Assembly: GCA_039808985.1 (NCBI GenBank)
Contig: JBDHUC010000006.1
Location: 20,261-84,260 of the forward strand
From: Alphaproteobacteria bacterium
Lineage (GTDB): Bacteria; Pseudomonadota; Alphaproteobacteria; Rickettsiales; SXRF01
DNA: 64,000 nt
Direction: 5' to 3'
Shown: positions 6,040 to 63,552 of the stretch, piece by piece
Layout of the letters: each line of letters begins with the position of its first letter
How positions within the stretch are numbered: position 1 is the stretch's first letter
Translations under genes and position numbers: made by a program
The notes under the pieces: generated by a model
The model's database searches: none
The model's input: only the letters and a program-made list of their open reading frames with translations
What the model was told of the DNA's origin: nothing

Positions 6040-7560
<1,521 letters not shown>

Positions 7561-12353: not shown

Positions 12354-12366
12354 GGGAATTCTCCTT

Positions 12367-29235: not shown

Positions 29236-29256
29236 GTGGCGTTATTGTAATTAAAT

Positions 29257-39256: not shown

Positions 39257-39274
39257 AATTTGTACCAGCCGCAT

Positions 39275-46100: not shown

Positions 46101-46795
46101 GGCCTTGCTCCTTGCATCATTTTTTGTTGGGATTGACCTGAACAGCCGCCACCACACGCGCCACTGCCGCAATTCCCGGCTTTGGGAGCTTCCGCGCCGA
46201 GGAAGTCAATCGGCTTTTCTTCCCATTCCTTGTCTAGATGCTCGAAATTTATGGCCGCAGGTGCTTTGCGTTCGACCTTTTCCGGCTTTTTCCCGGCGAG
46301 CAGCGTGAGCGTATCGAGCACAGCGCTATACGGGCTGCCGCGTTCCGCCAGGCGCTTGCCCAGCGCAACAAGTATATGCCCGGTATTGGCAAGTTCTTCG
46401 AGCGCTTCGCCTTTTGGCAGCATGGAGAGATATTCGAGGAATACCGGCAGATAATCGGGTAGTTCGCTGGCGGCAAGGCTGAAACCCTGCTCTTTATAAC
46501 GCTCGGCCAGATCAACCATAGCCTGCCCGCGATCGCGCGAATCGCCATGCACATGCTCGAACAGATGCAGAGAGAGAGAGCGCACACGGTCAAACGTATC
46601 AACGTAATCTTCCTGTAGTTCCATCAGGTCAGAAGCTTTAAGGTGCGATAATAATATACGCAAGCCAGCCAACTGTTCTTTCTTTACCAATGCTTCCTGC
46701 GCGATGATGTCGTACACATCAAAAGCGCCAGCCAGCCATTCCTCATTAGGATACCACAGCAGGATACCGAGGGCTTTAAACGTTTTAACTGGCAT
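46097..46795 (-). CDS. narJ: nitrate reductase molybdenum cofactor assembly chaperone with a Cys/Gly-rich tail
   Basis: 232 aa from the ATG at 46795. LLWYPNEEW...YVDTFD...LHLFEHVHGDSRDRGQAM is typical of NarJ. The tail is GNCGSGACGGGCSGQ. ATGA overlap with narI. Confidence 0.88.
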   Translation of the reverse strand: MPVKTFKALGILLWYPNEEWLAGAFDVYDIIAQEALVKKEQLAGLRILLSHLKASDLMELQEDYVDTFDRVRSLSLHLFEHVHGDSRDRGQAMVDLAERYKEQGFSLAASELPDYLPVFLEYLSMLPKGEALEELANTGHILVALGKRLAERGSPYSAVLDTLTLLAGKKPEKVERKAPAAINFEHLDKEWEEKPIDFLGAEAPKAGNCGSGACGGGCSGQSQQKMMQGARP

Positions 46796-48311
46796 GGGTA
46801 CCTCCAAAAAGATTCTTGCGTTTGGGCTTGCTGAACATCTGCGCATCCGAATTGCCGCCCGAGCAGCCATTGCCGAAGCTGAATCCACAGCCAGAGCGTA
46901 TATTGAAAGCTTCTTCGGCATATTCACGGTGCGAGGTTGGGATGACGTAACGATCTTCATAATTGGCAATCGCCATGTAGCGGTACATATCATCAACCAT
47001 CTCCTGCGACATGCCGACTTGCGAAAGCAGTTCCTGGTTGTTTACTCCGTCAACATGGCGGCCACGCATGTAAGCACGCATGGCGAGCATACGCTCAAGT
47101 GCCACGCGCACAGGCTTTTCTTCGCCTGCGGTGAGCAGGTTTGCCAGATAGGTGAGGGGAATACGCAAGCTCTTAACATCCGGGATAACCCCGTTCATAC
47201 CCATATCGCCGCTGGTGGCTGCATTTTGTATCGGCGAAAGCGGCGGAATGTACCACACCATCGGCAGGGTGCGGTATTCCGGGTGCAGAGGGAAAGCAAC
47301 TTTCCATTCCATCGCCATTTTATAAACAGGCGATTTCCGGGCAGCTTCCAGCCAGCTTTCGGGGATTCCCTCCGCGCGGGCGGCTTTTATAACCTCCGGA
47401 TCATTCGGGTTGAGGAACATCTCAAGCTGGGCATGGTAAAGATTCTGCTCATCCGCAACCGAAGCGGCGGCTTCGATTTTATCGGCATCATAGAGCAGCA
47501 CGCCAAGATAGCGGATACGCCCGACGCAGGTTTCCGAGCACACGGTCGGCTCGCCATTTTCAATGCGTGGATAGCAGAAAGTGCATTTCTCAGATTTGCC
47601 GGATTCCCAGTTGAAATAAATCTTCTTATATGGGCAGGCCGACACGCACATGCGCCAGCCACGGCATTTATCCTGGTCGATCAGCACAATGCCGTCTTCC
47701 TCGCGTTTATATATCGCGCCTGACGGGCAGGAAGCAACGCAGGCAGGGTTGAGGCAATGCTCACACAGGCGCGGCAGGTACATCATGAAAGTATTTTCAA
47801 ACTGGCCGTAAATGTCTTTCTGGACATTTTCAAAATTATAATCCTTGCTGCGGTGTTCGAATTCACCGCCTAAGATTTCCTCCCAGTTTGGTCCGCCAAC
47901 GATTTTATCCATCTTCTTGCCGGTGATCACCGAAACCGGGCGTGCAGTCGGCATGGTTTTGGCTTCCGGCGATTTATGCAGATGCTCGTAATCGAAGGTG
48001 AAAGGTTCGTAGTAATCATCAATCGACGGCAGGTTGGGGTTAGCAAAAATATTCGCTAGCGTGCGCCATTTTCCACCCTGCTTTGGTATAATCCTGCCGT
48101 TTGCTTTGCGCTCCCAGCCGCCTTTCCAGCGTTCCTGGTTTTCCCAGTCTTTCGGGTAGCCGATGCCGGGTTTGGTTTCAACATTATTGAACCACGCATA
48201 TTCCACGCCACGCCGCGAAGTCCATACGTTTTTACAGGTAACCGAACAGGTGTGGCAGCCGATACATTTATCTAGGTTCAACACCATGCCTATTTGTGCT
48301 CTTATTTTCAT
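46785..48311 (-). CDS. narH: respiratory nitrate reductase beta subunit
   Basis: 508 aa. Four Fe-S Cys clusters (CIGCHTCSVTC, CEHCLNPACVASC, CRGWRMCVSAC, CTFCYPR). Confidence 0.95.
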   Translation of the reverse strand: MKIRAQIGMVLNLDKCIGCHTCSVTCKNVWTSRRGVEYAWFNNVETKPGIGYPKDWENQERWKGGWERKANGRIIPKQGGKWRTLANIFANPNLPSIDDYYEPFTFDYEHLHKSPEAKTMPTARPVSVITGKKMDKIVGGPNWEEILGGEFEHRSKDYNFENVQKDIYGQFENTFMMYLPRLCEHCLNPACVASCPSGAIYKREEDGIVLIDQDKCRGWRMCVSACPYKKIYFNWESGKSEKCTFCYPRIENGEPTVCSETCVGRIRYLGVLLYDADKIEAAASVADEQNLYHAQLEMFLNPNDPEVIKAARAEGIPESWLEAARKSPVYKMAMEWKVAFPLHPEYRTLPMVWYIPPLSPIQNAATSGDMGMNGVIPDVKSLRIPLTYLANLLTAGEEKPVRVALERMLAMRAYMRGRHVDGVNNQELLSQVGMSQEMVDDMYRYMAIANYEDRYVIPTSHREYAEEAFNIRSGCGFSFGNGCSGGNSDAQMFSKPKRKNLFGGTHAS

Positions 48312-48321
48312 GGGGCTTCTC

Positions 48322-51300
48322 CTATTTCATTGCCGCTTCGAGTGGCTGTTCAAGCCTGGGCATTTCACCGCCTAGCGCCGCGCCATAATTATCTTCGTTC
48401 ATCCAGTCTACCTTTTCCATTTTACGCAGGATAATAAATTCATCGCGGTTGCTGCCTACAGTGCCGTAATAATTGAAATCATAGGCAAGCTGGGCATATC
48501 CGCCGATCATATGAGTGGGCTTTAATACCGTGCGGGTGACGGAATTGTGGATGCCGCCGCGCAGGCCGGTGATTTCGCTGCCTGGCACGTTCACGATTTT
48601 TTCCTGCGCATGGTACATTAGTATCATGCCTTCGGGTACACGCTGGCTCACCACCGCACGCGCAGTGAGCGCGCCATTGCTGTTATAAGCCTCAACCCAA
48701 TCGTTATCAACCACAGCGATTTTCTTCGCGTCAATTTCCGAAATCCACACGATCGGCCCGCCACGCGACAGGGTGAGCATCAGCAGATTATCGGTATAGG
48801 TAGAGTGAATGCCCCATTTCTGGTGCGGGGTAATGAAGTTCAGCAGCACCTGCTTGCGGTCTTTGCCAAATTTCTCGATCACATTTCCTGTCGCTTTCAA
48901 ATCCACCGGCGGTTTGTATACGCACAGCGATTCGCCAAATGCGCGCATCCATGCATGGTCCTGGTAGAGCTGCTGGCGGCCTGTGAGCGTGCGCCATGGC
49001 ACCAGCTCATGCACGTTTACGTATCCGGCATTATAGCTTACATGCTCGGATTCAATGCCACTCCATGTTGGCGAGGAAATAATCTTGCGCGGCTGCGCCT
49101 GAATATCGCGGTAGCGGATTTTTTCATCCTCGCGGGTTTCCGCCAGATGCAGGTGATTACGCCCGGTATTCTCACCCAGCGCTTTCCATGCCTTGCATGC
49201 CACATGGCCGTTGGTTTCCGGCGCCAGCGTCAAGATGACTTCCGCCGCATCAATAGCTGATTCAATGCGTGGCAGGCCTTTGGAAACGCCTTCCTCGGTA
49301 ACGGTGTAGTTGAGTTCGCCCAGCAGCTTCAATTCATCTTCCGTATTCCAGCTTATGCCTTTGCCGCCATTGCCGAGTTTGGAAAGCAGCGGCCCCAGCG
49401 AGGTGAATTTCTTGTAGGTGTTGGGGTAGTCCCGCTCCACCAGAAACACATTGGGCATGGTTTTACCGGGAACCGGCTCGCACTCGCCTTTTTTCCAGTC
49501 TTTCACGTCAAAGGCCTGCGCGATTTCATTCGCCGTATCATGCTTTATAGGGTTCATCACCACATCCTGCTCAACGCCCAGATGCCCTACGCATAGCTCC
49601 GAGAATTTTTTGGCGATGCCTTTGTAAATATCCCAATCGCTGCGCGATTCCCACGCCGGATCAACCGCCGCTGAAAGCGGGTGGATGAACGGGTGCATGT
49701 CTGAGGTATTGAGGTCGTTCTTCTCGTACCATGTGGCGGTGGGCAGAACGATGTCGGAATACATGCAGGTGGTGGACATGCGGAAATCCAGCGTCACCAG
49801 CAGGTCGAGCTTACCTTCGGGTGCTTCGTCATGCCACACGACATCCTTAGGCTTGGTGCCACCAAATTGGCCGAGGTCAACGCCCTGCACGCCGTGGCTG
49901 GTGCCGAGCAGGTGCTTGAGGAAATATTCGTGGCCCTTACCGCTGGAGCCAAGGATATTCGAGCGCCAGACGAACATGTTGCGCGGCCAGTTCTGCGGCG
50001 CATCCGGGTCATTGCAGGATAGCTTCAACTCTCCTGATTTAAGCCCTTCCGCCACCGCTTCGCCGACATTGCGCCCCGACTTTTTGATAGCCGCGCCAAC
50101 CTCCAGCGGGTTGCGCTCAAGCTGTGGCGCTGATGGTAGCCAGCCCATGCGCTCGGAGCGCACGTTGCAGTCGATAAATGATAGCTCTTTCCACTCCTGG
50201 TTATCTTCCAGCGGCGAGAGGATTTCTTCCATCTTCAGCCGCTCGTAGCGCCACTGGTCGGTGTGGGCGTAGAAGAACGAGGTGGAGTTCTGCTGGCGGG
50301 GCGGGCGGTTCCAGTCGGTGGCGAAGGCCAGCGGCACCCAGCCGGTTTGCGGGCGCAGTTTTTCCTGCCCGACATAATGGCTCCAGCCACCGCCGGATTT
50401 GCCGATACAGCCGCACATCACGAGCATGTTTATGATGGCGCGGTAATTCATGTCCATGTGGTACCAGTGGTTCATCGCCGCACCAATAATAACCATGGAT
50501 TTACCGTGGGTCTTATGCGCGTTCTCGGCAAACTGGCGAGCGACGTTAATTACATGCTCGCGTTTCACGCCTGTAATTTTTTCCTGCCATGCGGGAGTAT
50601 AAGGAACATCGTCATCAAATGAACTGGCCACGTTGCCGCCACCGAATCCGCGATCCACGCCGTAATTGGCGATGAAAAGGTCATAAACCGTTGCCACATA
50701 CGCATCGCCTTCCTTCAGTTCCAGCTTCAGGATGGGTACATTGCGGTTCAGCACGCTGGCATGATCGGTGCTATTAAAATGCTCATGCGGGGTATTGCCG
50801 AAATAGGGGAAAGACACCGATCCAATCTCGTGCTTACTGTGTTCCTTAAGCGTCAGCAGTGGCCAGAGTTCTTCGCCGGTCACTTCATCCTTCGGCTCCA
50901 GGTTCCACTTGCCTTTCTGCCCCCAGCGTGAACCGATGGTGCCGTTGGGCACGCGGACTTTCTCTTCATGTCCGCACATAATAACAGGCTTCCAGTCGGG
51001 ATTGTTTCCGGCGCCAAGATTATCTGCAAAATCCGAGGCGCGGATCATGCGATTGGGCACGTAGGCACCATCCTTTTTAACCATCAGCACCAGGAATGGC
51101 ATGTCAGTATACTGGCGGCAGTAATCATCGAAATAATCGCTCTTGCCTGCCACATGCCATTCTTTGAGGATCACATGGCCCATTGCCATGGCAAGCGCGG
51201 CGTCAGTTCCCTGCTTAGGGTGCATCCAGAGGTCGGCTAGCTTTGCCACTTCCGAATAGTCGGGGGTGACGGCTACGGTTTTTGCGCCCTTGTAACGCAC

Positions 51301-52110
51301 TTCGGTGAAGAAGTGGGCATCGGGCGTGCGCGTTTGCGGCACGTTGGAACCCCAGGCAATGATGAAGTTCGAGTTATACCAGTCGGCGGATTCCGGCACA
51401 TCGGTCTGCTCACCCCAGGTTTGCGGGCTGGAAGGCGGCAGGTCGCAATACCAGTCGTAAAAACTCATACACACGCCGCCAATAAGCGAGAGATAACGTG
51501 AGCCTGAAGCATACGACACCATCGACATTGCCGGAATTGGCGAGAAGCCTATGATACGGTCAGGGCCATGTTTTTTTGCAGTATAGATGTTGGCAGCGGC
51601 GATGATTTCGTTCACCTCTTCCCAATCGGCGCGCACAAATCCGCCTTTGCCGCGCACCTGCTGATACGATTTGCGTGTTGCTTCGTTAGTGGCAATAGCC
51701 TCCCATGCATTAACCGGATCTTTGGCAATCACTTTTGCGGCGCGCCATGCTTTGAGCAGGCGGCTGCGCACCAGCGGGTATTTCATACGGTTGGCACTGT
51801 AGAGATACCAGGAATAGCTTGCCCCGCGTGAGCAGCCACGTGGTTCATGGTTGGGCATATCGGGGCGGGTGCGCGGATAATCAGTCTGCTGCGTTTCCCA
51901 AGTGACAAGGCCGTTCTTTACATAAATCTTCCAACTGCACGAGCCGGTACAGTTCACGCCATGCGTTGAGCGCACGATTTTATCATGCTGCCATCTGCTA
52001 CGGTAGGCCTGCTCCCAGCCACGCGATTCATCGTTCATTACCCCGTGACCTTCAGAGAAGGATTCTGTCGCGCGCTTAAAGAAGGTCAGCTTGTCGATAA
52101 TATGGCTCAT
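48322..52110 (-). CDS. narG: respiratory nitrate reductase alpha subunit
   Basis: 1262 aa from the ATG at 52110 (MSHIIDKLTFFKR). FS0 motif HGVNCTGSCSWKIY. Full-length molybdopterin oxidoreductase. Confidence 0.95.
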   Translation of the reverse strand: MSHIIDKLTFFKRATESFSEGHGVMNDESRGWEQAYRSRWQHDKIVRSTHGVNCTGSCSWKIYVKNGLVTWETQQTDYPRTRPDMPNHEPRGCSRGASYSWYLYSANRMKYPLVRSRLLKAWRAAKVIAKDPVNAWEAIATNEATRKSYQQVRGKGGFVRADWEEVNEIIAAANIYTAKKHGPDRIIGFSPIPAMSMVSYASGSRYLSLIGGVCMSFYDWYCDLPPSSPQTWGEQTDVPESADWYNSNFIIAWGSNVPQTRTPDAHFFTEVRYKGAKTVAVTPDYSEVAKLADLWMHPKQGTDAALAMAMGHVILKEWHVAGKSDYFDDYCRQYTDMPFLVLMVKKDGAYVPNRMIRASDFADNLGAGNNPDWKPVIMCGHEEKVRVPNGTIGSRWGQKGKWNLEPKDEVTGEELWPLLTLKEHSKHEIGSVSFPYFGNTPHEHFNSTDHASVLNRNVPILKLELKEGDAYVATVYDLFIANYGVDRGFGGGNVASSFDDDVPYTPAWQEKITGVKREHVINVARQFAENAHKTHGKSMVIIGAAMNHWYHMDMNYRAIINMLVMCGCIGKSGGGWSHYVGQEKLRPQTGWVPLAFATDWNRPPRQQNSTSFFYAHTDQWRYERLKMEEILSPLEDNQEWKELSFIDCNVRSERMGWLPSAPQLERNPLEVGAAIKKSGRNVGEAVAEGLKSGELKLSCNDPDAPQNWPRNMFVWRSNILGSSGKGHEYFLKHLLGTSHGVQGVDLGQFGGTKPKDVVWHDEAPEGKLDLLVTLDFRMSTTCMYSDIVLPTATWYEKNDLNTSDMHPFIHPLSAAVDPAWESRSDWDIYKGIAKKFSELCVGHLGVEQDVVMNPIKHDTANEIAQAFDVKDWKKGECEPVPGKTMPNVFLVERDYPNTYKKFTSLGPLLSKLGNGGKGISWNTEDELKLLGELNYTVTEEGVSKGLPRIESAIDAAEVILTLAPETNGHVACKAWKALGENTGRNHLHLAETREDEKIRYRDIQAQPRKIISSPTWSGIESEHVSYNAGYVNVHELVPWRTLTGRQQLYQDHAWMRAFGESLCVYKPPVDLKATGNVIEKFGKDRKQVLLNFITPHQKWGIHSTYTDNLLMLTLSRGGPIVWISEIDAKKIAVVDNDWVEAYNSNGALTARAVVSQRVPEGMILMYHAQEKIVNVPGSEITGLRGGIHNSVTRTVLKPTHMIGGYAQLAYDFNYYGTVGSNRDEFIILRKMEKVDWMNEDNYGAALGGEMPRLEQPLEAAMK

Positions 52111-52171
52111 ATTTACATATCCTTGTCTGTTTCGTTGAGGGGATGTTAGATTGCATACCCACAAATTGAGA

Positions 52172-52185
52172 TTGATTTAGATCAA
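52172..52185. promoter_or_regulatory. FNR/Anr/Dnr-type box TTGAT-ttag-ATCAA upstream of narG
   Basis: A perfect TTGAT-N4-ATCAA palindrome centred ~68 nt upstream of the narG ATG. Confidence 0.7.
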
Positions 52186-52223: not shown

Positions 52224-53513
52224 CTATGCCTCAAGTTCAGGTAGGAATTTAGGGCCGCGCAGGGCAGGGTTCTGGCTGCGCTCCAGCAAAATGATGGTCA
52301 CATGCATCCACACAAATGCGATTCCAACCAGAGTGAACAGGATCATAAAACAGCTCGTCCAAACCCCAATAAAAGTGTTTGATAGCCCAAAGGCTATGGG
52401 TAAAAGAAAACCGCCAAGGCCACCTATCAGCCCGACCATTCCGCCAACGGCCCCGACATTATTAGGATAATATACAGGTATATGTTTAAATACAGCGGCC
52501 ATACCAAAAGACATAAATATGCTTAGCACAAACATTATTGCCACAAATATCGGCAATGTAATTGCCAGGCTGAACTGGATGTCGCCCTGAATCCCTTTAA
52601 CGGAATATGTTGTAGCCGGATAAGAGAGAAGGAAGGTGCAGGCTACGCAGACAATAAATACCAGATACATAATGCGCCTCGCGCCGAATTTATCTGATAG
52701 CGCTCCGCCCACAGCGCGGAAAATGCCAGCCGGTAAGGCAAATAATGTTGTAAGCAAACCAGCGGTTTTAATATCGAGCCCGTAAACACCCATATAATAT
52801 TTAGGGAGCCATAGGGCCAAAGCTACGAATCCTCCAAATACAAAGAAATAATAGAGGGCGAACCGCCAGACCTGGAGGCGTTTTAATGGCTCAAACTGCC
52901 TAAGGAGAGAATTCTGCTGTTTATTTTTGCGCCGTTCCTTAAATGAGGGGTCATCCTCGGATATAAAGGCAAAAATAATTGCCGCCACTAGTAATACTAT
53001 GGCATATATGTGCGCTGTACCGCCAAGTCCATAATTGGCTACGAGCAATGGAGCGCCAAAGCTGGTTAACGCCGAACCGGCAACCCCTATCCCAAACAGT
53101 CCCAGCGCAGTTCCTTGTTTTTCTCTTGAAAACCAGCGCGAAACATAAGCGACGCCAACTGAAAATGTCCCTCCTGCCAGGCCAACACCAAGGGCGGTAA
53201 GCAAATACATATTATAGCTATCGGCCAGTGAAACAGACCAGGTGGCAGCGGCAGTTATAAGTAATACTGTAACAAAAACAATCCGGCCACCAAACTGGTC
53301 CGTAAGCGCACCAAGAAACAACCGGCTGATGGCTCCGGTAAGTACAGGCGTTGCAACCAGGATGCCAAACTGGGAATCGGAAAGTCCCAGGTTTTGCTTG
53401 ATCTGGATACCCAGGATAGAAAACAGGGTCCATGTGGCGAATGTGAGTGCAAAAAGAATAGCGCTCAGGACTAAAGCTTTATACTGCCTGTAAGGAGTGA
53501 CTATTGTTGACAT
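52224..53513 (-). CDS. narK: nitrate/nitrite transporter (MFS, NarK family)
   Basis: 429 aa with 12 TM helices. NNP signature-like GALTDQFGGR and GGALSDKFGARR. Confidence 0.88.
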   Translation of the reverse strand: MSTIVTPYRQYKALVLSAILFALTFATWTLFSILGIQIKQNLGLSDSQFGILVATPVLTGAISRLFLGALTDQFGGRIVFVTVLLITAAATWSVSLADSYNMYLLTALGVGLAGGTFSVGVAYVSRWFSREKQGTALGLFGIGVAGSALTSFGAPLLVANYGLGGTAHIYAIVLLVAAIIFAFISEDDPSFKERRKNKQQNSLLRQFEPLKRLQVWRFALYYFFVFGGFVALALWLPKYYMGVYGLDIKTAGLLTTLFALPAGIFRAVGGALSDKFGARRIMYLVFIVCVACTFLLSYPATTYSVKGIQGDIQFSLAITLPIFVAIMFVLSIFMSFGMAAVFKHIPVYYPNNVGAVGGMVGLIGGLGGFLLPIAFGLSNTFIGVWTSCFMILFTLVGIAFVWMHVTIILLERSQNPALRGPKFLPELEA

Positions 53514-53570
53514 ATTAATACCTCATTTGTGGTTGTACTTTCTAAATCCCAGACATAGGCAGAAATTGGA

Positions 53571-53584
53571 TTGACCTGGATCAA
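53571..53584. promoter_or_regulatory. FNR-type box TTGAC-ctgg-ATCAA in the narK/regulator divergent region
   Basis: One mismatch to TTGAT-N4-ATCAA. Centred ~64 nt upstream of the narK ATG. Confidence 0.6.
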
Positions 53585-53669
53585 TCGCAACGTTTTTATT
53601 TCAGTGGGTATTATATTGATAATTCCTGTCGTCTGGTTATGATGAATTTTTGGATTGGGAAAAGCTTTA

Positions 53670-55223
53670 ATGGCTAATGCACTGAATAATCTATGTGATT
53701 TTATTCACGAGGCACAAAAGGAACGCGGTTCGGTATCTCTCTATCTGCGCAGCAGGAATGGTGTGTATTCAGAAGCCATGGAGTCGCAATTTGCCGTGTT
53801 GGATGGAGTTGGCAAAGCGCTTAACAAACTGCCGAAGAAGCAAAGTTCGCGCATTGAGCCGCTTCTCAATGCTATTCGCTACCTTCCCGCAAAGAGGAAA
53901 TACATAATCGCCAGGATGCTTAGGGCAGGGGAGGCTATTTCGTTTTATAGCCGTGATATTATAGCCCCTGCGATTGAAATAGTGCAGGAGCTTGCGGTTC
54001 TGGATCCTGTTAATAACCCGGCTAAGGTTTCTGCTTTTATTAATCTTCTCTATTGGAAAGAACGAGTTGGGTTGGAATGTGCGCTTGGTATACAGCTTGT
54101 GAACCTTGATGGGGCGCAAACAGCAGATTTTAAAAATCGTCTTGAATATATTGTTTCTGAGCAGCAGGCTTATGAGCGCATGTTTTTGGCGCTGGCAGAT
54201 GAAAATGGGCGTAAATCTGTAGAAAATCTTAAGAAAAATAATGATATATTCCGCAGCATAACGGAAATTAATGACAATATTTCAAAGGGAAATATACAAG
54301 AGGTGATAAGGTCTGTAAGCACTGAAGAATGGTTTAGGCTCTTCAGTGGCAAGATGGATTTGCTCCACGATGTTAGCAAAAATATTGTGGTTAATCTTAT
54401 TGCTGAACAGGAAGTTGTAAATTCTCCTGCGGCTCCTGAGGCAACACCTATAACTGATGAGCAGGCTGGCATTGAAACCGATGTGCGTGCCTATATGGGC
54501 ACTATTCAGTTGTTGCCGCTTTTTGCCGGGCTTACGCCTGATTCGCTGCAGGATATTTTGAAATATGCGCGCATTGTGAGCCATAACAAGGGTGCGGTGA
54601 TATTTTTGCAGGGCGAACAGGCTTCGCGTTTTTATATTATCCTTGAAGGCTGGGTTAAGCTGTTCAAGGGCAATGTCGAGGGGCAGGAATCCATCTTGCA
54701 GGTTATGACGGTTGGGGAAACATTGCTTGAAACTGTGATTTTCAGCAATCTCCCATTCCCGGTTACAGCGCAGGCAGTTGAGAACGTAAGGCTGCTGTCT
54801 ATTCCCGCAACGATCGTGCGTGAGAAGCTTCAGAGTAATAAAGAGCTGGCAATTAATATGCTATCAACCGTAGCGGTGCGCTCCCAGCTTCTTATAAGCC
54901 AGTTCGAACAGCTAACGCTTAAAACCGTAACGCAGCGTGTCGGTTGGTTTCTGCTGAAATTATTTTTAGAGAATGGGGAGCGCACTACCAACCTCAAGCT
55001 GCCATATGATAAATCGCTGATTGCCGGATATTTAGGCATGAAACCGGAAACCTTCTCGCGTACGCTTCAGGCCCTCAAAGAGCAGGGGATTGATATTGAT
55101 AAAAATAATATCAGCCTGCCGGATGTATTCGCTCTTTGCGATTTTTGTGATATGGAGTTGGCGGCAAAATGCAGCCGTTGCGGGACAAAAGAATGCCCAA
55201 ACCCGGATTGTGCTCACGCTTAA
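53670..55223 (+). CDS. NIT (nitrate/nitrite-sensing) domain fused to a Crp/Fnr-type cNMP-binding-like domain, an HTH and a Cys-rich tail
   Basis: About 517 aa from the ATG at 53670 (a TTG at 53655 is possible). The NIT half-repeats carry FIHEAQKERGSVSLYL and LLYWKERVGLECALG. A Crp-type beta-roll follows (LFAGLTPDSL...FYIILEGWVKLF), then an HTH with ETFSR and the tail CDFCDMELAAKCSRCGTKECPNPDC. Confidence 0.8.
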   Translation: MANALNNLCDFIHEAQKERGSVSLYLRSRNGVYSEAMESQFAVLDGVGKALNKLPKKQSSRIEPLLNAIRYLPAKRKYIIARMLRAGEAISFYSRDIIAPAIEIVQELAVLDPVNNPAKVSAFINLLYWKERVGLECALGIQLVNLDGAQTADFKNRLEYIVSEQQAYERMFLALADENGRKSVENLKKNNDIFRSITEINDNISKGNIQEVIRSVSTEEWFRLFSGKMDLLHDVSKNIVVNLIAEQEVVNSPAAPEATPITDEQAGIETDVRAYMGTIQLLPLFAGLTPDSLQDILKYARIVSHNKGAVIFLQGEQASRFYIILEGWVKLFKGNVEGQESILQVMTVGETLLETVIFSNLPFPVTAQAVENVRLLSIPATIVREKLQSNKELAINMLSTVAVRSQLLISQFEQLTLKTVTQRVGWFLLKLFLENGERTTNLKLPYDKSLIAGYLGMKPETFSRTLQALKEQGIDIDKNNISLPDVFALCDFCDMELAAKCSRCGTKECPNPDCAHA

Positions 55224-55233
55224 ATTATAGCAG

Positions 55234-55247
55234 TTGATCTGTATCAA
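55234..55247. promoter_or_regulatory. FNR-type box TTGAT-ctgt-ATCAA upstream of the moa operon leader
   Basis: A perfect palindrome 11 nt after the regulator stop and ~30 nt before the putative Moco riboswitch. Confidence 0.65.
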
Positions 55248-55267: not shown

Positions 55268-55400
55268 TGTTACTCTCCAGCCATCCGAAGCTTTGGGGTC
55301 CTAAGCAGTAGCCATGCTCCTGTATGGTCCCAGGGCCGTAATCATAAGATTGCCGGGTAGTGATGGAAACGCTGCTATCTCCCGTTTTTGGAAAGGATGC
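55268..55400 (+). promoter_or_regulatory. molybdenum cofactor (Moco) riboswitch candidate in the moaA leader
   Basis: The leader contains elements I recall from the E. coli moaA Moco motif: ACTCTCCAGCC..., ...GGGCCGTAATCATAAGATTGCC..., and the 3' element CTCCCGTTTTTGGAAAGGATG, which embeds the moaA RBS just before the ATG at 55405. Confidence 0.6.
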
Positions 55401-55404
55401 TAAA

Positions 55405-56376
55405 ATGTTGAAGGATTCATTTGGGAGAAAATTCCCCTATTTAAGGCTGTCCGTGACGGAGGTGTGCAACTTCCGCTGTACCTATTGCCTGCCAAATGGC
55501 TACCAGAAAACTGATCGTGATTTCCTGACGCTTCCCGAAATCCGCAGGGTCGCTTCGGCATTCGCCGCGCTTGGCACCCATAAAATCCGCCTGACCGGCG
55601 GCGAGCCGACAGTGCGGCATGATTTAACCGAAATTGCCCGCGCTGTAAGTTCTGTTCCAGGTATACGCACAATAGCGCTCACCACCAACGGCTACAATCT
55701 TAAAGAAAATGCCCGCGCATTTTATGAAGCAGGCATTAATGCGCTGAATGTGAGCGTCGATAGCCTTGATCCAGCACGGTTTCACGCCATTACCGGGCAT
55801 GACAGGCTTATGCATGTGCTGGAAGGGATTGAGGCGGCGAAGGCGGTGGGCTTTAGCAATATCAAAATCAATTCGGTGCTGCTCAAGGAAGTTACCGATG
55901 GCGCGCTGCCTGATTTCCTGGCATGGATTAAGCGCGAGTCGCTCTCTGTCCGGTTTATTGAGCTGATGCAAACTGGCGAAAATCTGGCCTTTTTCAAACA
56001 GCACCACATCAGCGCGAATGTGATTATTCAGCAATTGCTGGAGCATGGGTTCGTGCCGGAAATTCGCAAAGCCGATGCCGGCCCGGCGCAGGAGTTTACG
56101 CATCCCGGTTATGCGGGGAAGATCGGCGTCATCGCGCCGTATTCAAAGGATTTCTGCAAAAACTGCAACCGCCTGCGCGTTACCTCACGCGGTAAGCTGA
56201 TGCTCTGCCTGTTTGGCGAGGGCGGCTATGATCTGCGCCCATACTTGCAGCATGACGGCCAGCGCGAAGAGCTTATGGATGCGATTGCGTCAGCGCTGCA
56301 TTTTAAACACGAAACCCATTATTTGCAGCAGGGATTCACCGGCTCCACGCCGCACCTTGCATCACTAGGAGGATAG
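55405..56376 (+). CDS. moaA: GTP 3',8-cyclase (radical SAM)
   Basis: 323 aa from the ATG at 55405. CNFRCTYC radical-SAM motif, C-terminal CxxCxRLR cluster (CKNCNRLRVT), and a terminal GG. Confidence 0.92.
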   Translation: MLKDSFGRKFPYLRLSVTEVCNFRCTYCLPNGYQKTDRDFLTLPEIRRVASAFAALGTHKIRLTGGEPTVRHDLTEIARAVSSVPGIRTIALTTNGYNLKENARAFYEAGINALNVSVDSLDPARFHAITGHDRLMHVLEGIEAAKAVGFSNIKINSVLLKEVTDGALPDFLAWIKRESLSVRFIELMQTGENLAFFKQHHISANVIIQQLLEHGFVPEIRKADAGPAQEFTHPGYAGKIGVIAPYSKDFCKNCNRLRVTSRGKLMLCLFGEGGYDLRPYLQHDGQREELMDAIASALHFKHETHYLQQGFTGSTPHLASLGG

Positions 56377-57366
56377 ATGAAACCCAGTTTCCAAATGATA
56401 GATGTCGGAAATAAGCCTATCAAACACCGCATCGCGGTGGCCAGCGGAGAAATCGTTGTGGGGGCAGATGCCTTCGCGCTGATCCGTGACCGCAAACTGC
56501 CCAAGGGCGATGTGCTGGTGCTGGCCGAAATCGCAGGTATTCAGGGCGCGAAGAAGGCTTATGAGATGATTCCTCTCTGTCACCCTATGGGACTGGACAT
56601 GGTACGGGTTTTCACCGAATTACTGCCGGAAGAAAATGCGGTGCGCGTATATTGCGCCGCTTCCGTGCATGCCAAAACAGGCATCGAGATGGAAGTTCTG
56701 GCGGGTGTGAATGCGGCGCTGCTCACAATCTGGGATTTGAGCAAGATGATCGAAGCGAACCTGGCGATGCGTGCAATTAAACTTCTTGCAAAAAAGGGCG
56801 GTAAATCCGGGCTGTGGCTTAATCCCGCAGGTGTGCCGGAGTGGGTGATGGAACTGGTAAATCAACAAGCCGCACAGTTGCTGTCAGGCCGCAAAGCCGC
56901 CGTGCTGACCTTGAGCGACCGTGCGGCCAAAGGTGAATACGAAGATATTTCCGGCACATCATTAAAGAAGGCACTGGAAGAAGCCGGATGCACGATTTGC
57001 AATTATCAGGTGATCCCGGATGATAAGGACGGCATCGCCGCCACGGTTCAGGAAATAGTGAAACGCCATACGCCGCATCTGCTGATCACCACGGGCGGCA
57101 CCGGTGTTTCGCCGCGTGACTATACGCCGGAAGCACTGCTGCCGCTATTCGATAAGGAAATTCCCGGAGTGGGCGAATTGCTGCGTAGCGACGGGGCGCA
57201 GTTCACGCCGCTTTCATGGAGCAGCCGCGCCGTGGGCGGCATTATCGGCTCTACGCTCGTTATCACGCTTCCGGGCAATCCTGCTGCTGTCAGCGAGGGA
57301 CTCTCCGCCTTGCTGCCCAAACTAATCCCGCATCTAATACGCATTACCAATGGAGAAAAACCATGA
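56377..57366 (+). CDS. moaC: bifunctional cyclic pyranopterin monophosphate synthase MoaC / MoaB-MogA-type domain protein
   Basis: 329 aa. N-terminal MoaC (MIDVGNKP..., IPLCHP, KTGIEMEVLAGV) fused to a MogA/MoaB domain (TLSDRAAKG...ITTGGTGVSPRD). Confidence 0.88.
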   Translation: MKPSFQMIDVGNKPIKHRIAVASGEIVVGADAFALIRDRKLPKGDVLVLAEIAGIQGAKKAYEMIPLCHPMGLDMVRVFTELLPEENAVRVYCAASVHAKTGIEMEVLAGVNAALLTIWDLSKMIEANLAMRAIKLLAKKGGKSGLWLNPAGVPEWVMELVNQQAAQLLSGRKAAVLTLSDRAAKGEYEDISGTSLKKALEEAGCTICNYQVIPDDKDGIAATVQEIVKRHTPHLLITTGGTGVSPRDYTPEALLPLFDKEIPGVGELLRSDGAQFTPLSWSSRAVGGIIGSTLVITLPGNPAAVSEGLSALLPKLIPHLIRITNGEKP

Positions 57367-58616
57367 TCCCTTATGAAGAAGCAGTGGCAATTATCCTGAA
57401 ACACGCCAAACCATGCCCTGTCATTACAAAGCCATTATTGCAAGCGCTGGGAAATATTGCGGCTCATGATGTGCAAAGTTCTATTCAGGTACCAAGCTTC
57501 CGCAACAGCGCGATGGATGGTTTTGCCGTGTGCGCATCCCGGCTTGCTGCCGCCAGCGGACAAAACCCCGTTAACTTAAAAATTCAGGCGGCTATTGCGG
57601 CGGGAGATGTTGTATCCACCGGAAAAGCGGAAACTGCCGTGCAGGTTATGACTGGCGCAATCGTACCGGAACCTTACGATGCTATTGTGCCGGTGGAGCT
57701 GGTGGCCATATCCGGCGATAGCGTTACATTCACCAAGCCCGCCCGCATGGGTGACCATATCAGGCTTCCGGGCGAGGATGTCAGGAATGGCCAGGCTGTG
57801 CTGCGTCAGGGAGAGCGTATCAGCCCTGAAACCATTATGCTGCTCTCGGCGCTCGGAGTAGCGGAAGTGGCGGTGGCACAAGCGCCGCTCCTGCATATCA
57901 TCAGCACCGGCAACGAAATCAGCGATGATTATGCCGCGCCTCTGCTAGGCGCACAAATATACAATTCCAACGCACCGTACCTGCTGGCGGCAGCGCAGCA
58001 GCAAGGGCTGGAAGTGCGTTATGAAGGCATAGTGCGCGATGAACCGGCGTTATTTGAAGAAAAACTTGCAGCCATTAAAGAGCCAGCGGTAATCATCAGT
58101 ACCGGCGCGGTTTCCAAAGGCGTGTGGGATTTTATACCGGATAGTTTGAGGAAAATCGGGGCAGAGATACATTTTCACCGCGTCAATATCCGCCCCGGAA
58201 AGCCGGTATTGTTTGCGACGCTGCCGGGTGGAAGCTACTATTTCGGGCTACCGGGTAACCCTATTTCTGCTGCTATTGGCTTTACCTTTTTCGTGATGCC
58301 GCTTGTGAGAGTACTAAAAGGCCAGCTTGATTCACAGCCATTTATGGCAATCCTGGAAAACAGCTTAACCAAAAAAGGGGATTTTCGCCACTTCCTTAAA
58401 GCCAGTATATGGATAAATGAGGTCGGCAGTTTGCGCGTGCGCATAGCAGATGGCCAGGAATCCTTCAAGATAAGCCCGATGGCGGCGAGCAACGCATGGG
58501 TGGTGTTAGAGGAGGGCAAAACCCGGTGGGATGCAGGCGATGTTGTTTCGGTAGTTCCATACGGCACAATTTCCACAAATGCACCTGAGGAGCTAGTACT
58601 ATGTCAGGCAGCATAA
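57363..58616 (+). CDS. moeA: molybdopterin molybdenumtransferase
   Basis: 417 aa from the ATG at 57363 (ATGA overlap). SFRNSAMDGFAV and LPGNPISA are MoeA hallmarks. Confidence 0.9.
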   Translation: MIPYEEAVAIILKHAKPCPVITKPLLQALGNIAAHDVQSSIQVPSFRNSAMDGFAVCASRLAAASGQNPVNLKIQAAIAAGDVVSTGKAETAVQVMTGAIVPEPYDAIVPVELVAISGDSVTFTKPARMGDHIRLPGEDVRNGQAVLRQGERISPETIMLLSALGVAEVAVAQAPLLHIISTGNEISDDYAAPLLGAQIYNSNAPYLLAAAQQQGLEVRYEGIVRDEPALFEEKLAAIKEPAVIISTGAVSKGVWDFIPDSLRKIGAEIHFHRVNIRPGKPVLFATLPGGSYYFGLPGNPISAAIGFTFFVMPLVRVLKGQLDSQPFMAILENSLTKKGDFRHFLKASIWINEVGSLRVRIADGQESFKISPMAASNAWVVLEEGKTRWDAGDVVSVVPYGTISTNAPEELVLCQAA

Positions 58617-58855
58617 CGCTTACTATAAGCCTTTTTGGTGCATTCCGTGGATATGAAAACGGTGGGCCGCTTACGCTTGCCCTGCCGCAGGGCGCAACAC
58701 TTGTACAAGCGCGCAGCGCCATTAAAGAAGCTCTTGGCGGCCATCCTCTGGTGGATAACTCGGCGCTGGCTGATGAAACCCGTATTCTGTCGGAAGCTGC
58801 TATATTCGAGCGCGATACGGAATTAGCCATCCTGCCCCCGGTTTGCGGAGGGTAA
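58601..58855 (+). CDS. moaD: molybdopterin synthase sulfur-carrier subunit
   Basis: 84 aa, ubiquitin-like, ending in the diagnostic Gly-Gly (…PPVCGG). Confidence 0.85.
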   Translation: MSGSITLTISLFGAFRGYENGGPLTLALPQGATLVQARSAIKEALGGHPLVDNSALADETRILSEAAIFERDTELAILPPVCGG

Positions 58856-58860
58856 CAATT

Positions 58861-59310
58861 ATGGACTCTATCTATACAGGCATTAGCGGGGAGGCGCTTT
58901 CCATCCAGAAAGCGGCTGATTTTGTGGATGCGCCAGAGAATGGCGCGCTTGATATGTTTGTCGGGAAGGTGCGCAACCATAACCTGGGCAAGGCAGTAAA
59001 TGCTGTAAGTTATGATGTGTTCGCGCCTCTGGCCAACACCGTGTTTTTAGAGCTTTGCACAGAGGCGAGGGCGCAATTTGGCGAGCGCCTGCGGCTTTAT
59101 GTGGAGCACTATAAAGGCAGGCTGGAGATCGGCGGTATCAGCGTTATTATTGCTGTTGGTTCCCCACACCGCGATGAATCCTTCAAAGCCTGCCGCTACC
59201 TGATCGAGCAGCTAAAGATCCGTGCTCCCATCTGGAAGCAGGAGCATTACGTGGATGGCGATAGCGAATGGGTGAAAGGCCATGCGCTTTGTGGGCATCA
59301 TCATGAATGA
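58861..59310 (+). CDS. moaE: molybdopterin synthase catalytic subunit
   Basis: 149 aa from the ATG at 58861. FVGKVRN...ISVIIAVGSPHRDESF...APIWKQE is typical of MoaE. Confidence 0.88.
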   Translation: MDSIYTGISGEALSIQKAADFVDAPENGALDMFVGKVRNHNLGKAVNAVSYDVFAPLANTVFLELCTEARAQFGERLRLYVEHYKGRLEIGGISVIIAVGSPHRDESFKACRYLIEQLKIRAPIWKQEHYVDGDSEWVKGHALCGHHHE

Positions 59311-59887
59311 TGTAGCCGCAGTTATCCTGGCAGGCGGCAAATCCTCACGCATGGGGCGTGATAAGGCGCTGCTTCCATACCAGGGTGCGCGCCTGATAGA
59401 TCGCATGATACGTGTAGTTGAAGAAATTGGTTGTTCTACTGTTGTAGTAAGCGGGTTTGTAGATGGCTATCACTGTATTAATGACATAAATAAAAACTGT
59501 GGCCCAATGGGAGGCATTCATGCCGTATTGCAAGCTGCAATAAAGGAAAATATGCCCAGGGCATGGTTATTTGTTCCGGTCGATATGCCTGCCATAACGC
59601 CAGGCTTGCTAGCACGCCTTTCCAGTAGCGCATGTGCAGGCGATTATGATGCAGCTTGTTTTGAAAATAATCCGCTGCCATTATTTATTAAATTAAACAA
59701 TCACGTTATAAATTGTTTGAATAATATGGAACTAAAATTTTTATCCGGCCAGAAAATTGCAGTAAAAGATTTTTTAGGAAACATGAAAATTTGTCGCCAT
59801 ACCGTATCTGCCGAAGAAAGGCCTTTTCTGGTAAATACCAACACGCCGGAAGAATGGCATGAGGTTATGAAAGGGATGGCGTCATGA
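59303..59887 (+). CDS. mobA: molybdenum cofactor guanylyltransferase
   Basis: 194 aa from the ATG at 59303. AVILAGGKSSRMGRDKALL, and DMP in VPVDMPAIT. Confidence 0.85.
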   Translation: MNDVAAVILAGGKSSRMGRDKALLPYQGARLIDRMIRVVEEIGCSTVVVSGFVDGYHCINDINKNCGPMGGIHAVLQAAIKENMPRAWLFVPVDMPAITPGLLARLSSSACAGDYDAACFENNPLPLFIKLNNHVINCLNNMELKFLSGQKIAVKDFLGNMKICRHTVSAEERPFLVNTNTPEEWHEVMKGMAS

Positions 59888-60312: not shown

Positions 60313-61011
60313 ATGTCATTTTCAAAACAATCGCTTGGGGAAATCGCCTGTAATATACCCGGAGCCACAAAGGTTTTTCACCAGTTTCGTATGGATTTCT
60401 GCTGCGGTGGCAAGCGCAGCCTTGAGGAGGAAGCCTTGCGCAGGCAGGTGAGCCTGCCGGAAGTGCTTGAGGCTCTGGAGCAGCTTCGTTTAAAAAACTC
60501 TATGGAGAAAGACTGGACTAAAGCGCCGACTAAGGAGCTTGTAGACCATATAGTTGAGCGTTTTCATGCGCGCCACCGTGAGCAGTTGCCGGAGTTAATC
60601 CGATTGGCAGAAAAAGTTGAGCGTGTACATGCAGGACATCCGGATGTTCCTGCCGGGCTTGCAGCCCATCTGGCGCAAATGCTAAGTGAGCTTGAAAACC
60701 ATATGCAGAAAGAAGAGCGTATTCTATTCCCAATGCTGGTGCGCGGTCAGGGCAGCATGGCCGGTGGCCCGATTTCTGTTATGGAGTCAGAGCATGTAAT
60801 GCATGGTGAGGAACTCGAAAAAATGCTTGAGCTTACGCATCAGCTTGAATTGCCTGATGGGGCATGCAACACGTGGAGAGCGCTTTATCTAGGACTTTCC
60901 GAGCTGCGTGATGATTTGATGGAGCATATCCACCTGGAAAATAATATTTTGTTTAAACAGTCAGGCAGCGCTGGTGGTGGTTGTGGCGGCGGATGCAGTT
61001 GCAAAACATAA
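60313..61011 (+). CDS. ytfE: iron-sulfur cluster repair di-iron protein (RIC/YtfE/ScdA) with a Cys/Gly-rich tail
   Basis: 232 aa. ScdA_N motif FHQFRMDFCCGG and hemerythrin-like His/Glu motifs (HH..EE..LFP, EH...E). The tail is GSAGGGCGGGCSCKT. Confidence 0.88.
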   Translation: MSFSKQSLGEIACNIPGATKVFHQFRMDFCCGGKRSLEEEALRRQVSLPEVLEALEQLRLKNSMEKDWTKAPTKELVDHIVERFHARHREQLPELIRLAEKVERVHAGHPDVPAGLAAHLAQMLSELENHMQKEERILFPMLVRGQGSMAGGPISVMESEHVMHGEELEKMLELTHQLELPDGACNTWRALYLGLSELRDDLMEHIHLENNILFKQSGSAGGGCGGGCSCKT

Positions 61012-61768: not shown

Positions 61769-62653
61769 TCAACGCAATTCATCATACAATTCAATCGGTA
61801 GCCCTGAGTGAGATTTAAGATAATTAATTATTTGATGTTCTTTGCCGTAGAATGGCCTTCGCACAACAAATAGCGCATCCACATCGTCTTTAAAGCTACT
61901 TGATTTTGCGATTGGTGTTTTAAGGATAAATTTGTAATAGGGCGGTGAACTTAATTTTCTGGATGAGCGCGCAGGCTCAACACTTATAAATTGCAGTTCA
62001 TTCCACTTTAATTCCGCCAGCGGCTTTAGCTGGTCGCGTAATATTTCGCGGTATCCTCCTTCCAGCAGGGCGATGTTTGCCTGCAATCCACTGGCTGTAA
62101 ATATCAGGCCTGTTGATGCCAAACGGGAAGCAAGCTTCTTTTCTTCAACCGATTGGCGACGCTGTTTAAAGACAAAAACAAGTAACAATATTGGGAATAT
62201 AATGGCAAGGTAGCTTAACGCCTTTAATCCGCTGTCTTCAGAGAAAATACCGGCTATGGATAATAACCCAACGACTAGCAGGAATCCTATAAAGAAATTA
62301 AATGCTATTATTTCCGTATTATATTTCTCCAGCATATCCGGCGGCAGGATGCTTAACCTTTCATCGCTGACGTTATTTTCTACGGAAGAATCCGGCAACT
62401 CTGGCATAATAACCGCTTGCTTCCTGTGTTGATTGGAGCAGGCCCATAACACTAATGGGGTGACGATGGCAATGGATACAGCCATGAACAATATAACAGA
62501 CAAGGCTTCGTGCGAGCTTGTTTTGCCGTTGGCAATATCAATAAAAAATGACGAAAATCCGATCGGAGCTGCGATGGCAAGCCCAAAGGCCAGGTTTTTA
62601 AGCCGTTTGCGCTTCTGGTTGGCGTGATATATTTCAAGCTCTTTTTCATTCAT
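61769..62653 (-). CDS. hypothetical membrane protein (4-5 TM plus a C-terminal soluble domain)
   Basis: 294 aa from the ATG at 62653. The longer 62734 start would overlap the upstream MCP gene. No family was recognised. Confidence 0.45.
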   Translation of the reverse strand: MNEKELEIYHANQKRKRLKNLAFGLAIAAPIGFSSFFIDIANGKTSSHEALSVILFMAVSIAIVTPLVLWACSNQHRKQAVIMPELPDSSVENNVSDERLSILPPDMLEKYNTEIIAFNFFIGFLLVVGLLSIAGIFSEDSGLKALSYLAIIFPILLLVFVFKQRRQSVEEKKLASRLASTGLIFTASGLQANIALLEGGYREILRDQLKPLAELKWNELQFISVEPARSSRKLSSPPYYKFILKTPIAKSSSFKDDVDALFVVRRPFYGKEHQIINYLKSHSGLPIELYDELR

Positions 62654-62706
62654 CAGGCAATCCCATTCGAATATACTGCTCACAGAAATTTGAATGTTGG
62701 CACAAT

Positions 62707-63552
62707 CTAAGCCGCTGCAATCTTCTTTATGCATGTATTAAGTTGATTTACCCCGGAAGACGCCTTTTGCATATTGCTGGATATTTCCTTGGTAACAGCA
62801 GTCTGCTCTTCAATAGCCGAGGCGACTGCGCTTACTGAGTGGCTTACAGAAGATGCGGCTTGATCAACCGACACCGCACTCTCAGCCGCCTGATTCGACA
62901 TCTGCTGCAATTCAATAATCTTGGCAGCAATATCATCAGTAGCTTTTCCGGTCTGTGTAGCTAGTGTTTTAACTTCAGCAGCCACTACAGCGAATCCTTT
63001 GCCTGCCTCACCAGCTCGCGCTGCTTCAATGGTCGCGTTTAATGCCAGCAAATTAACCTGGCCAGCGATGCCCCTAATCATCTCCACCACCGCTTCCATT
63101 GAGGTTGCGGTTTCTTTCAGGGAGTTCATTATCTGATTCGCATGTTTAATTTTATCCACAATATCAATAATTGCTGAATTAGAGTTCGACATATTTTTAC
63201 TGATTTCTGAAATTGAGGCTGTCATCTCTTCAGATGCGGCTGCAACTGTCTGAGTAACTGCATGCATCTCATTTGTAAGGCTAACTGATTCGAGTCGTGC
63301 TTGCATTTGCTGCGTAATATTGGTTGCGTATTTAACCACCTTAAACGGTTTGCCGTTCATATCCAGAATGGGATTATAAGAAGCCTGGATCCATATCTCC
63401 TTGCCGCCCTTTCCAATTCTCTTGTATTCGGCTACCTGATACTCGCCCCGGTTCGGAGCCATCCAGAAGTTTTTGTATTCCTGGCTCTGTGCATAGCCTG
63501 ATTCTGCAAACATGCTATGGTGCTTTCCCTGTATTTCTTCCAATGAATAACC
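62707..63552 (-). pseudogene. 5'-truncated PAS-domain methyl-accepting chemotaxis protein
   Basis: Intact MCP signalling domain ([32 protein letters not shown]). Only the C-terminal half of a PAS domain is present. The reading frame [15 protein letters not shown] is preceded directly by an in-frame TAA at 63553-63555. There is no ATG and no RBS. Confidence 0.7.

Follow-up and report, generated by a model that had tools for sequence, protein, structure and literature searches.

The question raised by this locus is which protein controls its genes for nitrate respiration, and which signals that protein reads. Within the window, meaning here the whole 64,000-nucleotide stretch of contig JBDHUC010000006.1 that was analysed, the gene for a 517-residue protein lies divergently from the transporter gene narK, and its product joins an N-terminal NIT domain to a Crp/Fnr DNA-binding module and a C-terminal cysteine (Cys) tail. 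This regulator puts known modules to a known task in a new combination and, judged from sequence, probably switches on the nar genes beside it. With a confidence a little above even, it is read here as a cytoplasmic one-component activator of nitrate respiration, in which the NIT domain would provide a nitrate input and four of the tail cysteines (Cys4) an iron-sulfur input, the Crp module and its tail being the putative ancestral part.

A NIT domain joined to a Crp/Fnr module

The regulator and its parts are as follows (pLDDT, predicted local distance difference test score).

53670-55223 (+), coding sequence of the NIT-Crp/Fnr-Cys4 regulator, 517 amino acids, ATG start, stop at 55223
53670-54392 (+), NIT domain, an all-helical double four-helix bundle, about residues 1-241, Pfam NIT 81.5 bits
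54408-54452 (+), predicted disordered linker from the NIT domain to the Crp module, residues 247-261, pLDDT below 50 in the full-length model
54579-54920 (+), Crp-type beta-roll and long helix, with cNMP_binding at residues 304-390 and the helix at residues 391-417, the position of the Crp dimerisation helix in the model
54933-55142 (+), winged helix-turn-helix HTH_Crp_2, residues 422-491, Pfam 44.9 bits
55137-55211 (+), C-terminal Cys tail, C490-x2-C493-D494-x6-C501-x7-C509-P-N-P-D-C514, plus the extra C504

The longest open reading frame (ORF) for the regulator runs from 53655 to 55223 on the plus strand and begins with a TTG codon at 53655. The homologues begin with MANALNNL, as does the 517-residue database copy (P0001), and the real start is therefore probably the ATG at 53670. 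An earlier note, made from the sequence alone, had proposed the three-part architecture of NIT domain, Crp/Fnr module and Cys tail, and Pfam, profile and fold evidence all agree that this is correct. In the Pfam search, one of the checks that the note had suggested, NIT, cNMP_binding (66.2 bits) and HTH_Crp_2 each score above their gathering cut-offs.

In the case of the N-terminal half, the NIT match (PF08376, cut-off 24.9 bits) spans profile positions 1-234 of 239. Both NIT motifs quoted in the note are present and conserved, as H13-x2-Q16-x-E18-R19-G20 and W129-K130-E131-R132-x-G134-x-E136-R137; Q16, E18, R19 and K130 are invariant in an alignment of 56 diverse homologues, with E131 and R132 almost so. 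The family profile matches NasR (PDB 4akk) over the whole N-terminal half (E 5e-19), aligning HEAQKERG of the regulator to HMLQCERG of NasR, and WKERVGLERALG to NasR GKELAGQERALG. The route through a family profile was taken because the single sequence of this half is insufficient, a PDB search with the N-terminal 262 residues returning only a spurious nanobody match. Similarly, the domain was modelled separately because a Foldseek search with the full-length model returned just Crp matches, and no NIT match, among its top 50. The AlphaFold model of the N-terminal 258 residues has a pLDDT of 91.6 and a predicted template modelling score (pTM) of 0.89, and its sole significant PDB match by Foldseek is NasR 4akk (E 3.5e-5, template modelling (TM) score 0.74, 262 columns). 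The N terminus, which the note had allowed might turn out to be an unrelated helical bundle, is thus a NIT domain by both Pfam match and NasR-like model.

The C-terminal half has the layout of the Crp/Fnr superfamily, namely a beta-roll, a long helix and then a C-terminal HTH_Crp_2 domain, and the full-length model (pLDDT 85.8) places a standard Crp fold after the disordered linker. Profile matches of the Crp module include 3fx3/3h3z (SPOA0323; E 2e-56) and DNR (3dkw; E 2e-45), and Foldseek TM scores, normalised to the target, reach 0.84 against GlxR, CRP and FNR structures. The ETFSR recognition motif described in the note lies at 55047-55061 as E460-T-F-S463-R464, with E460, T461, S463 and R464 invariant among the 56 homologues, and the E-x2-SR pattern is that of the FNR/FixK class. 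An E. coli-type FNR is excluded, since the N-terminal Cys cluster (C-x2-C-x5-C) is missing from the regulator; its N terminus is instead the NIT domain, and the NCBIfam Fnr model scores 30.8 bits against a cut-off of 228. An FtrB equivalog was likewise rejected, with scores of 112.8 against 211 bits (NF006901) and 82.1 against 300 bits (NF050815). No curated NCBIfam model reaches its cut-off for the regulator, FtrB being the best-scoring named family at 112.8 bits.

The fusion is widespread. In a collection of 5.8 billion proteins, all three Pfam domains are found in 117 of the 120 best clusters, which extend to 38% identity, and a search of 1.84 billion representatives gave 255 matches at E <= 1e-30, forming about 45-50 full-length clusters at 50% identity. 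Classification by hidden Markov models of the 253 collected proteins with a full Crp module assigned 153 to the NIT plus Crp arrangement, 150 of these with the tail; the Crp body is free of Cys in 99 of these 150 fusions. Names given to family members are automatic only, either 'CRP-like cAMP-binding protein' or 'nitrate- and nitrite sensing domain-containing protein'. The note had presented the fusion as novel, and had named a common and already characterised architecture as the finding that would tell against it. The architecture is indeed common, with at least 150 proteins in two classes already in databases, and a full-text literature search, with most subscription journals outside its coverage, found no publication on a NIT-Crp/Fnr protein. 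The finding holds, on broader evidence than the sequence alone could give the note, and is less singular than the note implied, because it concerns a sizeable, automatically annotated family.

Carriers among the Alphaproteobacteria include Rickettsiales-labelled metagenome-assembled genomes (MAGs), Hyphomonadaceae, Asticcacaulis tiandongensis, Pseudaquidulcibacter, Kordiimonas lacus, Pseudokordiimonas caeni, Emcibacter, Robiginitomaculum and Methyloligella, while Alcanivoracaceae, Lysobacterales, Marinicella, SUP05 and a Bathymodiolus symbiont account for the Gammaproteobacteria. The window organism itself is uncultured; it turns up repeatedly in metagenomes of activated sludge and wastewater, and its nearest genomic relatives are 80% identical (L001, L013).

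Gene order and FNR-type boxes

The genes and sites around the regulator that bear on its likely targets are the following.

45411-52164 (-), narGHJI, respiratory nitrate reductase (narG 48322-52164, narH 46785-48311, then narJ and narI)
52224-53513 (-), narK, NarK-family nitrate/nitrite transporter of the major facilitator superfamily, divergent from the regulator
55360-59887 (+), molybdenum cofactor genes moaA, moaC-mog fusion, moeA, moaE and mobA, downstream of the regulator
60313-61011 (+), ytfE/RIC, iron-sulfur cluster repair di-iron protein (NF008221, 325 bits against a cut-off of 254)
52172-52185 (unstranded), FNR-type box TTGATTTAGATCAA between narK and narG, specific to the window
53571-53584 (unstranded), FNR-type box TTGACCTGGATCAA between narK and the regulator, its centre 64.5 bp from the narK ATG and 92.5 bp from the regulator ATG
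55234-55247 (unstranded), FNR-type box TTGATCTGTATCAA, 119.5 bp upstream of moaA
60239-60252 (unstranded), FNR-type box TTGATTTATGTCAA, 67.5 bp upstream of ytfE
53616-53643 (+), sigma-70-like -35/-10 pair ahead of the regulator, TTGATA and TATGAT with a 16-nt spacer, a consensus match only

The divergent placement of narK, and the two FNR-type boxes that the note had described on either side of the regulator, were confirmed, and much of this arrangement is shared by relatives. Among 65 full-length loci from species-representative genomes, nar genes are present in 52, and nine further loci have only moa genes within the fetched DNA. Where at least 1.8 kb of upstream DNA is available, narK is divergent within 1 kb in 37 of 56 loci, and moaA or moeA lies downstream of the regulator at most loci, in Alpha- and Gammaproteobacteria alike.

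The window contains exactly four TTGAY-N4-RTCAA sites, all of them intergenic (intergenic DNA being 12% of the window) and all within 8 kb, and these exact boxes sit 64-120 bp upstream of narG, narK/regulator, moaA and ytfE. When up to one mismatch to TTGATNNNNATCAA is allowed, nine sites are found in the window against 4.35 expected, which is weakly significant. Among relatives, an exact TTGAY-N4-RTCAA box is found in 35 of 40 narK-regulator intergenic regions, against about one expected from the locus-wide density, and in 28 of 42 regulator-moaA/moeA intergenic regions, again against about one expected. The distance from box centre to the narK start codon is nearly constant (median 81.5 bp, interquartile range 75.5-90.5), and that to the regulator start is variable (interquartile range 100-178); the box is therefore best regarded as a promoter element of the narK operon. 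The narG-proximal box is not conserved. Most relatives among loci L001-L072 have a further gene of about 1.7 kb between narK and narG, probably a second NarK-type transporter gene, and for this reason the box there is taken to be specific to the window. The ytfE box is kept in only one of the four relatives with ytfE nearby. Thus, the proposal in the note that the regulator drives the nar, moa and ytfE promoters is strongly backed by conserved synteny and boxes for nar and moa, and is weakened for ytfE and for the box next to narG. A scan of the region for sigma-70 promoters and terminators gave match counts no higher than in shuffled sequence.

The note had also stated that neither narXL/narQP nor a classical FNR is present in the window. 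A scan of window ORFs of at least 150 amino acids turned up neither a histidine kinase nor a response regulator, in keeping with the first part. The statement passed over a second Crp/Fnr gene, and the absence of FNR within 64 kb is no information on the rest of the genome.

33768-34511 (+), second Crp/Fnr-family regulator, 247 amino acids, FtrB-like at 80 bits (below cut-off), with an ETFSR helix

This second regulator has no Cys cluster and is 29% identical to the focal Crp module; 3' of it lie a LemA-like gene with a weak MamQ match and then a TPM/Psb32-like gene. There are no nir or nor genes in the 64-kb window.

Several other features of the window were recorded. Within the molybdenum cofactor genes, MoaC is fused to a MoCF_biosynth (Mog/MoaB-like) domain (56377-57366, plus strand, 329 amino acids), a fusion kept in many related loci. 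A PAS-MCP gene, soluble chemoreceptor-like (62707-63543, minus strand), has the one-mismatch box TTGATTGGTATCAG at 63638-63651, about 100 bp upstream, and PAS-MCP homologues also lie close to the regulator, with no exact box, in L010, L011 and L072. Farther away are an NAD salvage cluster (10112-13170, minus strand) with an NrtR-type Nudix regulator, a nicotinate/nicotinamide phosphoribosyltransferase and a Prs-like protein; nadE (26165-27763); an IS110-family transposase gene (6381-7334, plus strand) and a GmrSD-type restriction endonuclease gene (39260-41038, plus strand), as signs of mobile elements and defence; and ORFs of 206-498 amino acids with no Pfam match at E <= 1e-6 (7568-9064, 13181-14107, 27760-30714, 35851-36471 and 61769-62734).

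The cysteine tail and what the protein may sense

In the tail, six Cys residues are counted (C490, C493, C501, C504, C509 and C514) and not the seven given in the note. Four of them, C490, C493, C501 and C509, are invariant in the 56 homologues and form the pattern C-x2-C-x7-C-x7-C, whose 2/7/7 spacing is kept in 143 of the 150 fusions. An Asp follows the C-x2-C pair in 138 of the 150, 102 have Pro directly after the fourth Cys (Cys-Pro), and the fifth Cys (C514) is present in 97; C504 is missing from all 119 other homologues listed.

The tail is not special to the NIT fusion, since the same Cys tail is found on 46 NIT-less proteins, mostly of about 250 amino acids. True NIT-less forms occur on long contigs, and one of them (L037) comes from the same MAG as a full-length form (L005). 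When Crp modules are placed in a neighbour-joining tree, the group with NIT falls inside the clade with the tail, and NIT appears to have been gained or lost several times (19 by the Fitch method, a rough figure). As read from these sequences, the Cys tail predates the fusion, and marks an older, unnamed Crp/Fnr subfamily that also exists without NIT. Only one of the 46 tail-only proteins has three or more Cys in its first 45 residues, so that these proteins are otherwise free of a Cys cluster. Their gene contexts are varied:

P0167, P0183 and L071, narG-narK divergent from the tail-only regulator and then moa, the same arrangement as in the window
P0145, directly after narGHJ-nnrS-narI
L067 and P0166, immediately upstream of nrdD-nrdG
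P0172, adjoining a radical-SAM activase gene
P0168, divergent from ompW-ccoNOQP-fixG
L070, divergent from hemN
L037, L062 and P0146, context uninformative

An exact box lies beside some tail-only regulators (L071, L085 and L090), not all. In addition, nnrS, encoding a nitric oxide (NO)-response membrane protein, sits between narJ and narI at L084 (2854-4032), where the tail-only regulator follows the operon.

Because the neighbours of the tail-only proteins (nar, nrdDG, ccoNOQP and hemN) are genes usually under oxygen-sensor control, their distribution suggests that the Crp module and tail may sense anaerobiosis by themselves, with NIT adding nitrate specificity at nar loci. The NIT-less tail subfamily may, in its own right, be an unrecognised oxygen sensor in Proteobacteria. 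By analogy with known sensory clusters, the tail is probably an O2- or NO-labile iron-sulfur sensor, the alternative being a structural zinc site.

In the proposed mechanism, a dimeric Crp module would bind the TTGAY-N4-RTCAA boxes and activate narK(-narGHJI) and moa. Binding of nitrate or nitrite to the NIT domain would relieve an inactive state, as has been proposed for NasR, and the C-terminal Cys4 tail would hold, by analogy with Bacillus Fnr, an O2- or NO-labile iron-sulfur cluster needed for activity; the single protein would then need both nitrate and low oxygen. The Crp module with its tail would represent an ancestral regulator of anaerobic genes, to which NIT was added at nar loci.

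Several points weigh against this reading. For the protein as a whole, the pTM of the full-length model is 0.54, which leaves the orientation of the domains uncertain. With regard to expression, three short contigs from one wastewater metatranscriptome (run X25), identical to 53502-53691 and 54684-54967 in the regulator and the intergenic region upstream of it, may reflect transcription of the gene or else DNA carry-over, and are too few for mapping of a transcription start. The second regulator at 33768-34511, with its E-x2-SR helix, could bind or compete for the same boxes. For the tail alone, a Pfam search gave no significant match and no iron-sulfur model; the only weak match is of CPNPDC to the zinc knuckle of PyrI, at 17 bits against a cut-off of 23.4, and because of this sub-threshold likeness structural zinc is still a serious alternative. 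The 2/7/7 spacing also differs from the C-x2-C-x4-C plus Asp of Bacillus Fnr. Finally, a NIT match by itself is no proof of nitrate binding, as the precedent of Pseudomonas aeruginosa PA4520 suggests, whose NIT domain binds neither nitrate nor nitrite (PMC6381276).

A specific version of the proposal, held tentatively and at somewhat less than an even chance, is a two-input AND gate in which NIT reads nitrate or nitrite, a new proteobacterial Cys4 iron-sulfur site reads O2 or NO, and both act through one Crp/Fnr dimer. Alternatively, NIT may be the sole input, as in a NarR-like regulator responding to nitrate only, with the tail binding structural zinc or forming disulfides and serving just to stabilise the DNA-binding domain, and oxygen read by a separate FNR/FixK-type protein, either the one at 33768-34511 or one encoded elsewhere; this is considered less likely than not. 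Such a division of labour is found at the nar genes of Paracoccus, where FnrP responds to oxygen and NarR to nitrate (PMC8139620). A second regulator with the E-x2-SR helix is at hand in the window, CPNPDC has its weak likeness to the PyrI zinc knuckle, and four Cys that include one C-x2-C pair can coordinate zinc. Against this, the tail-only relatives have no other sensory Cys cluster and yet lie beside the O2-regulated genes nrdDG, ccoNOQP, hemN and nar, and invariance is limited to a single C-x2-C knuckle, the Cys of the second knuckle (C514) being absent from about one member in three. A Cys-Pro together with a conserved Asp is, moreover, more typical of iron-sulfur sites than of structural zinc.

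It is improbable that the NIT-like domain is something other than a nitrate/nitrite sensor, either binding another ligand or serving as a scaffold for dimerisation or autoinhibition, with a signal such as NO read by the beta-roll as in the haem-based DNR/NnrR proteins. The case of PA4520 means that NIT may be a multi-ligand superfamily (PMC6381276), the Crp module has its best characterised structural relative in DNR, the nearest relative on a Paracoccus plasmid adjoins nirK and ric, and ytfE lies nearby with a box of its own. However, both signature motifs that the domain has in common with the nitrate sensor NasR are invariant or almost invariant, and forms with NIT are tied to nar in 52 of 65 loci whereas tail-only forms have spread to other anaerobic genes, which is the pattern expected if NIT adds substrate specificity. 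The idea that the regulator does not act on its neighbours at all, the boxes serving a global FNR/FixK only while the NIT-Crp protein targets another site or distant genes, is very unlikely: FNR boxes upstream of nar and moa are common in bacteria with an ordinary FNR, and some tail-only loci of the same gene order have no exact box (L092, L093), but the E-x2-SR helix is invariant, and the pairing of regulator and narK with a box at fixed distance has been kept across two proteobacterial classes.

Whatever the second input, the family joins a recognisable nitrate sensor directly to a transcription factor, so that nitrate sensing can be tested with one purified protein. Experiments, in cultured carriers too, can address both whether a Crp/Fnr factor senses nitrate directly and whether the tail is a new iron-sulfur oxygen sensor. 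Should the AND gate hold, it would be a third placement of the sensory cluster in the FNR family and the first direct nitrate-binding Crp/Fnr regulator, and would stand in for FNR with NarXL, or for FnrP with NarR, across many Alpha- and Gammaproteobacteria, SUP05 and Bathymodiolus symbionts among them. The carriers range over wastewater and activated-sludge bacteria, marine Kordiimonadales and Emcibacterales MAGs, SUP05 and the sulfur-oxidising symbionts of Bathymodiolus, and the control of nitrate reduction is relevant to nitrogen removal and nitrogen loss in these habitats. A compact, one-protein switch responding to nitrate, and possibly to O2, would also be a candidate biosensor part.

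Comparison with known systems

The NIT half of the regulator resembles the nitrate/nitrite sensor NasR of Klebsiella oxytoca (NIT-ANTAR, 4akk), which also has a cytoplasmic N-terminal NIT domain that matches in fold (TM 0.74) and in signature motifs. The two proteins are alike in having a flexible linker to the output domain and a one-component logic, and the mode of action proposed for NasR is relief of autoinhibition (PMC12591593). The output of NasR is an RNA-binding ANTAR antiterminator of the assimilatory nas genes, whereas that of the regulator is a Crp/Fnr DNA-binding module at respiratory nar genes, with a Cys4 tail in addition.

A counterpart in locus design is NarR of Paracoccus (P. 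denitrificans and P. pantotrophus), a Crp/Fnr protein that induces nar upon nitrate or nitrite. A 2021 review states that Alphaproteobacteria have no identified NarXL homologue and that NarR fills this role, and describes no sensing mechanism for NarR (PMC8139620). The design seen here recurs in P. aminovorans, where narK-narGHJI and a NarR-like gene, recognised from its position alone, diverge from a shared intergenic region that contains a TTGATCCATATCAA box. NarR (about 250 amino acids) differs from the regulator in having neither NIT nor a Cys tail. The possibility that the Crp module is a NarR orthologue was rejected, identity to the positional P. aminovorans NarR being 28%, below that to 3fx3 or DNR. 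As a separate observation, the plasmid p1 of Paracoccus sp. TOH (L081) carries two adjacent Crp/Fnr genes between nirK and ric/ytfE, and the product of one, at 35% identity, ranks with the closest relatives of the focal Crp module that are carried on plasmids.

The fnr gene of Bacillus subtilis is likewise linked to narK. In Fnr of B. subtilis and B. cereus, a C-terminal Cys extension after the helix-turn-helix holds the sensory [4Fe-4S] cluster (PMC3520743, PMC12937710). The Bacillus motif is C-x2-C-x4-C plus a distant Asp, on a protein with no NIT, as against C-x2-C-x7-C-x7-C in the regulator, so that the likeness of the two tails is taken as one of analogy. Eleven near relatives of the Crp module end in C-x2-C-x3-6-C, for instance YTCSMCSHSFPC, and include P0203, P0216, P0225, P0244, P0252, P0256, P0260 and P0261; these ends recall the C-terminal cluster site of Bacillus Fnr at the level of the motif.

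The closest solved structures of the Crp module are those of the NO-responsive denitrification regulators DNR/NnrR and of the structural-genomics protein SPOA0323 (3fx3/3h3z), the examined relatives sharing the E-x2-SR helix class; unlike the regulator, these proteins have neither NIT nor a Cys tail. DNR senses NO via haem in its beta-roll. In E. coli, FNR, which recognises TTGAT-N4-ATCAA, together with NarXL/NarQP brings the same two signals, anoxia and nitrate or nitrite, to nar. FNR of E. coli has the N-terminal Cys cluster, ligating [4Fe-4S] together with a central Cys, that is absent from the regulator, and NarX and NarQ are membrane histidine kinases with a periplasmic sensor that is not NIT. 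Thus, what is accomplished in E. coli by at least three proteins would be brought together here in one.

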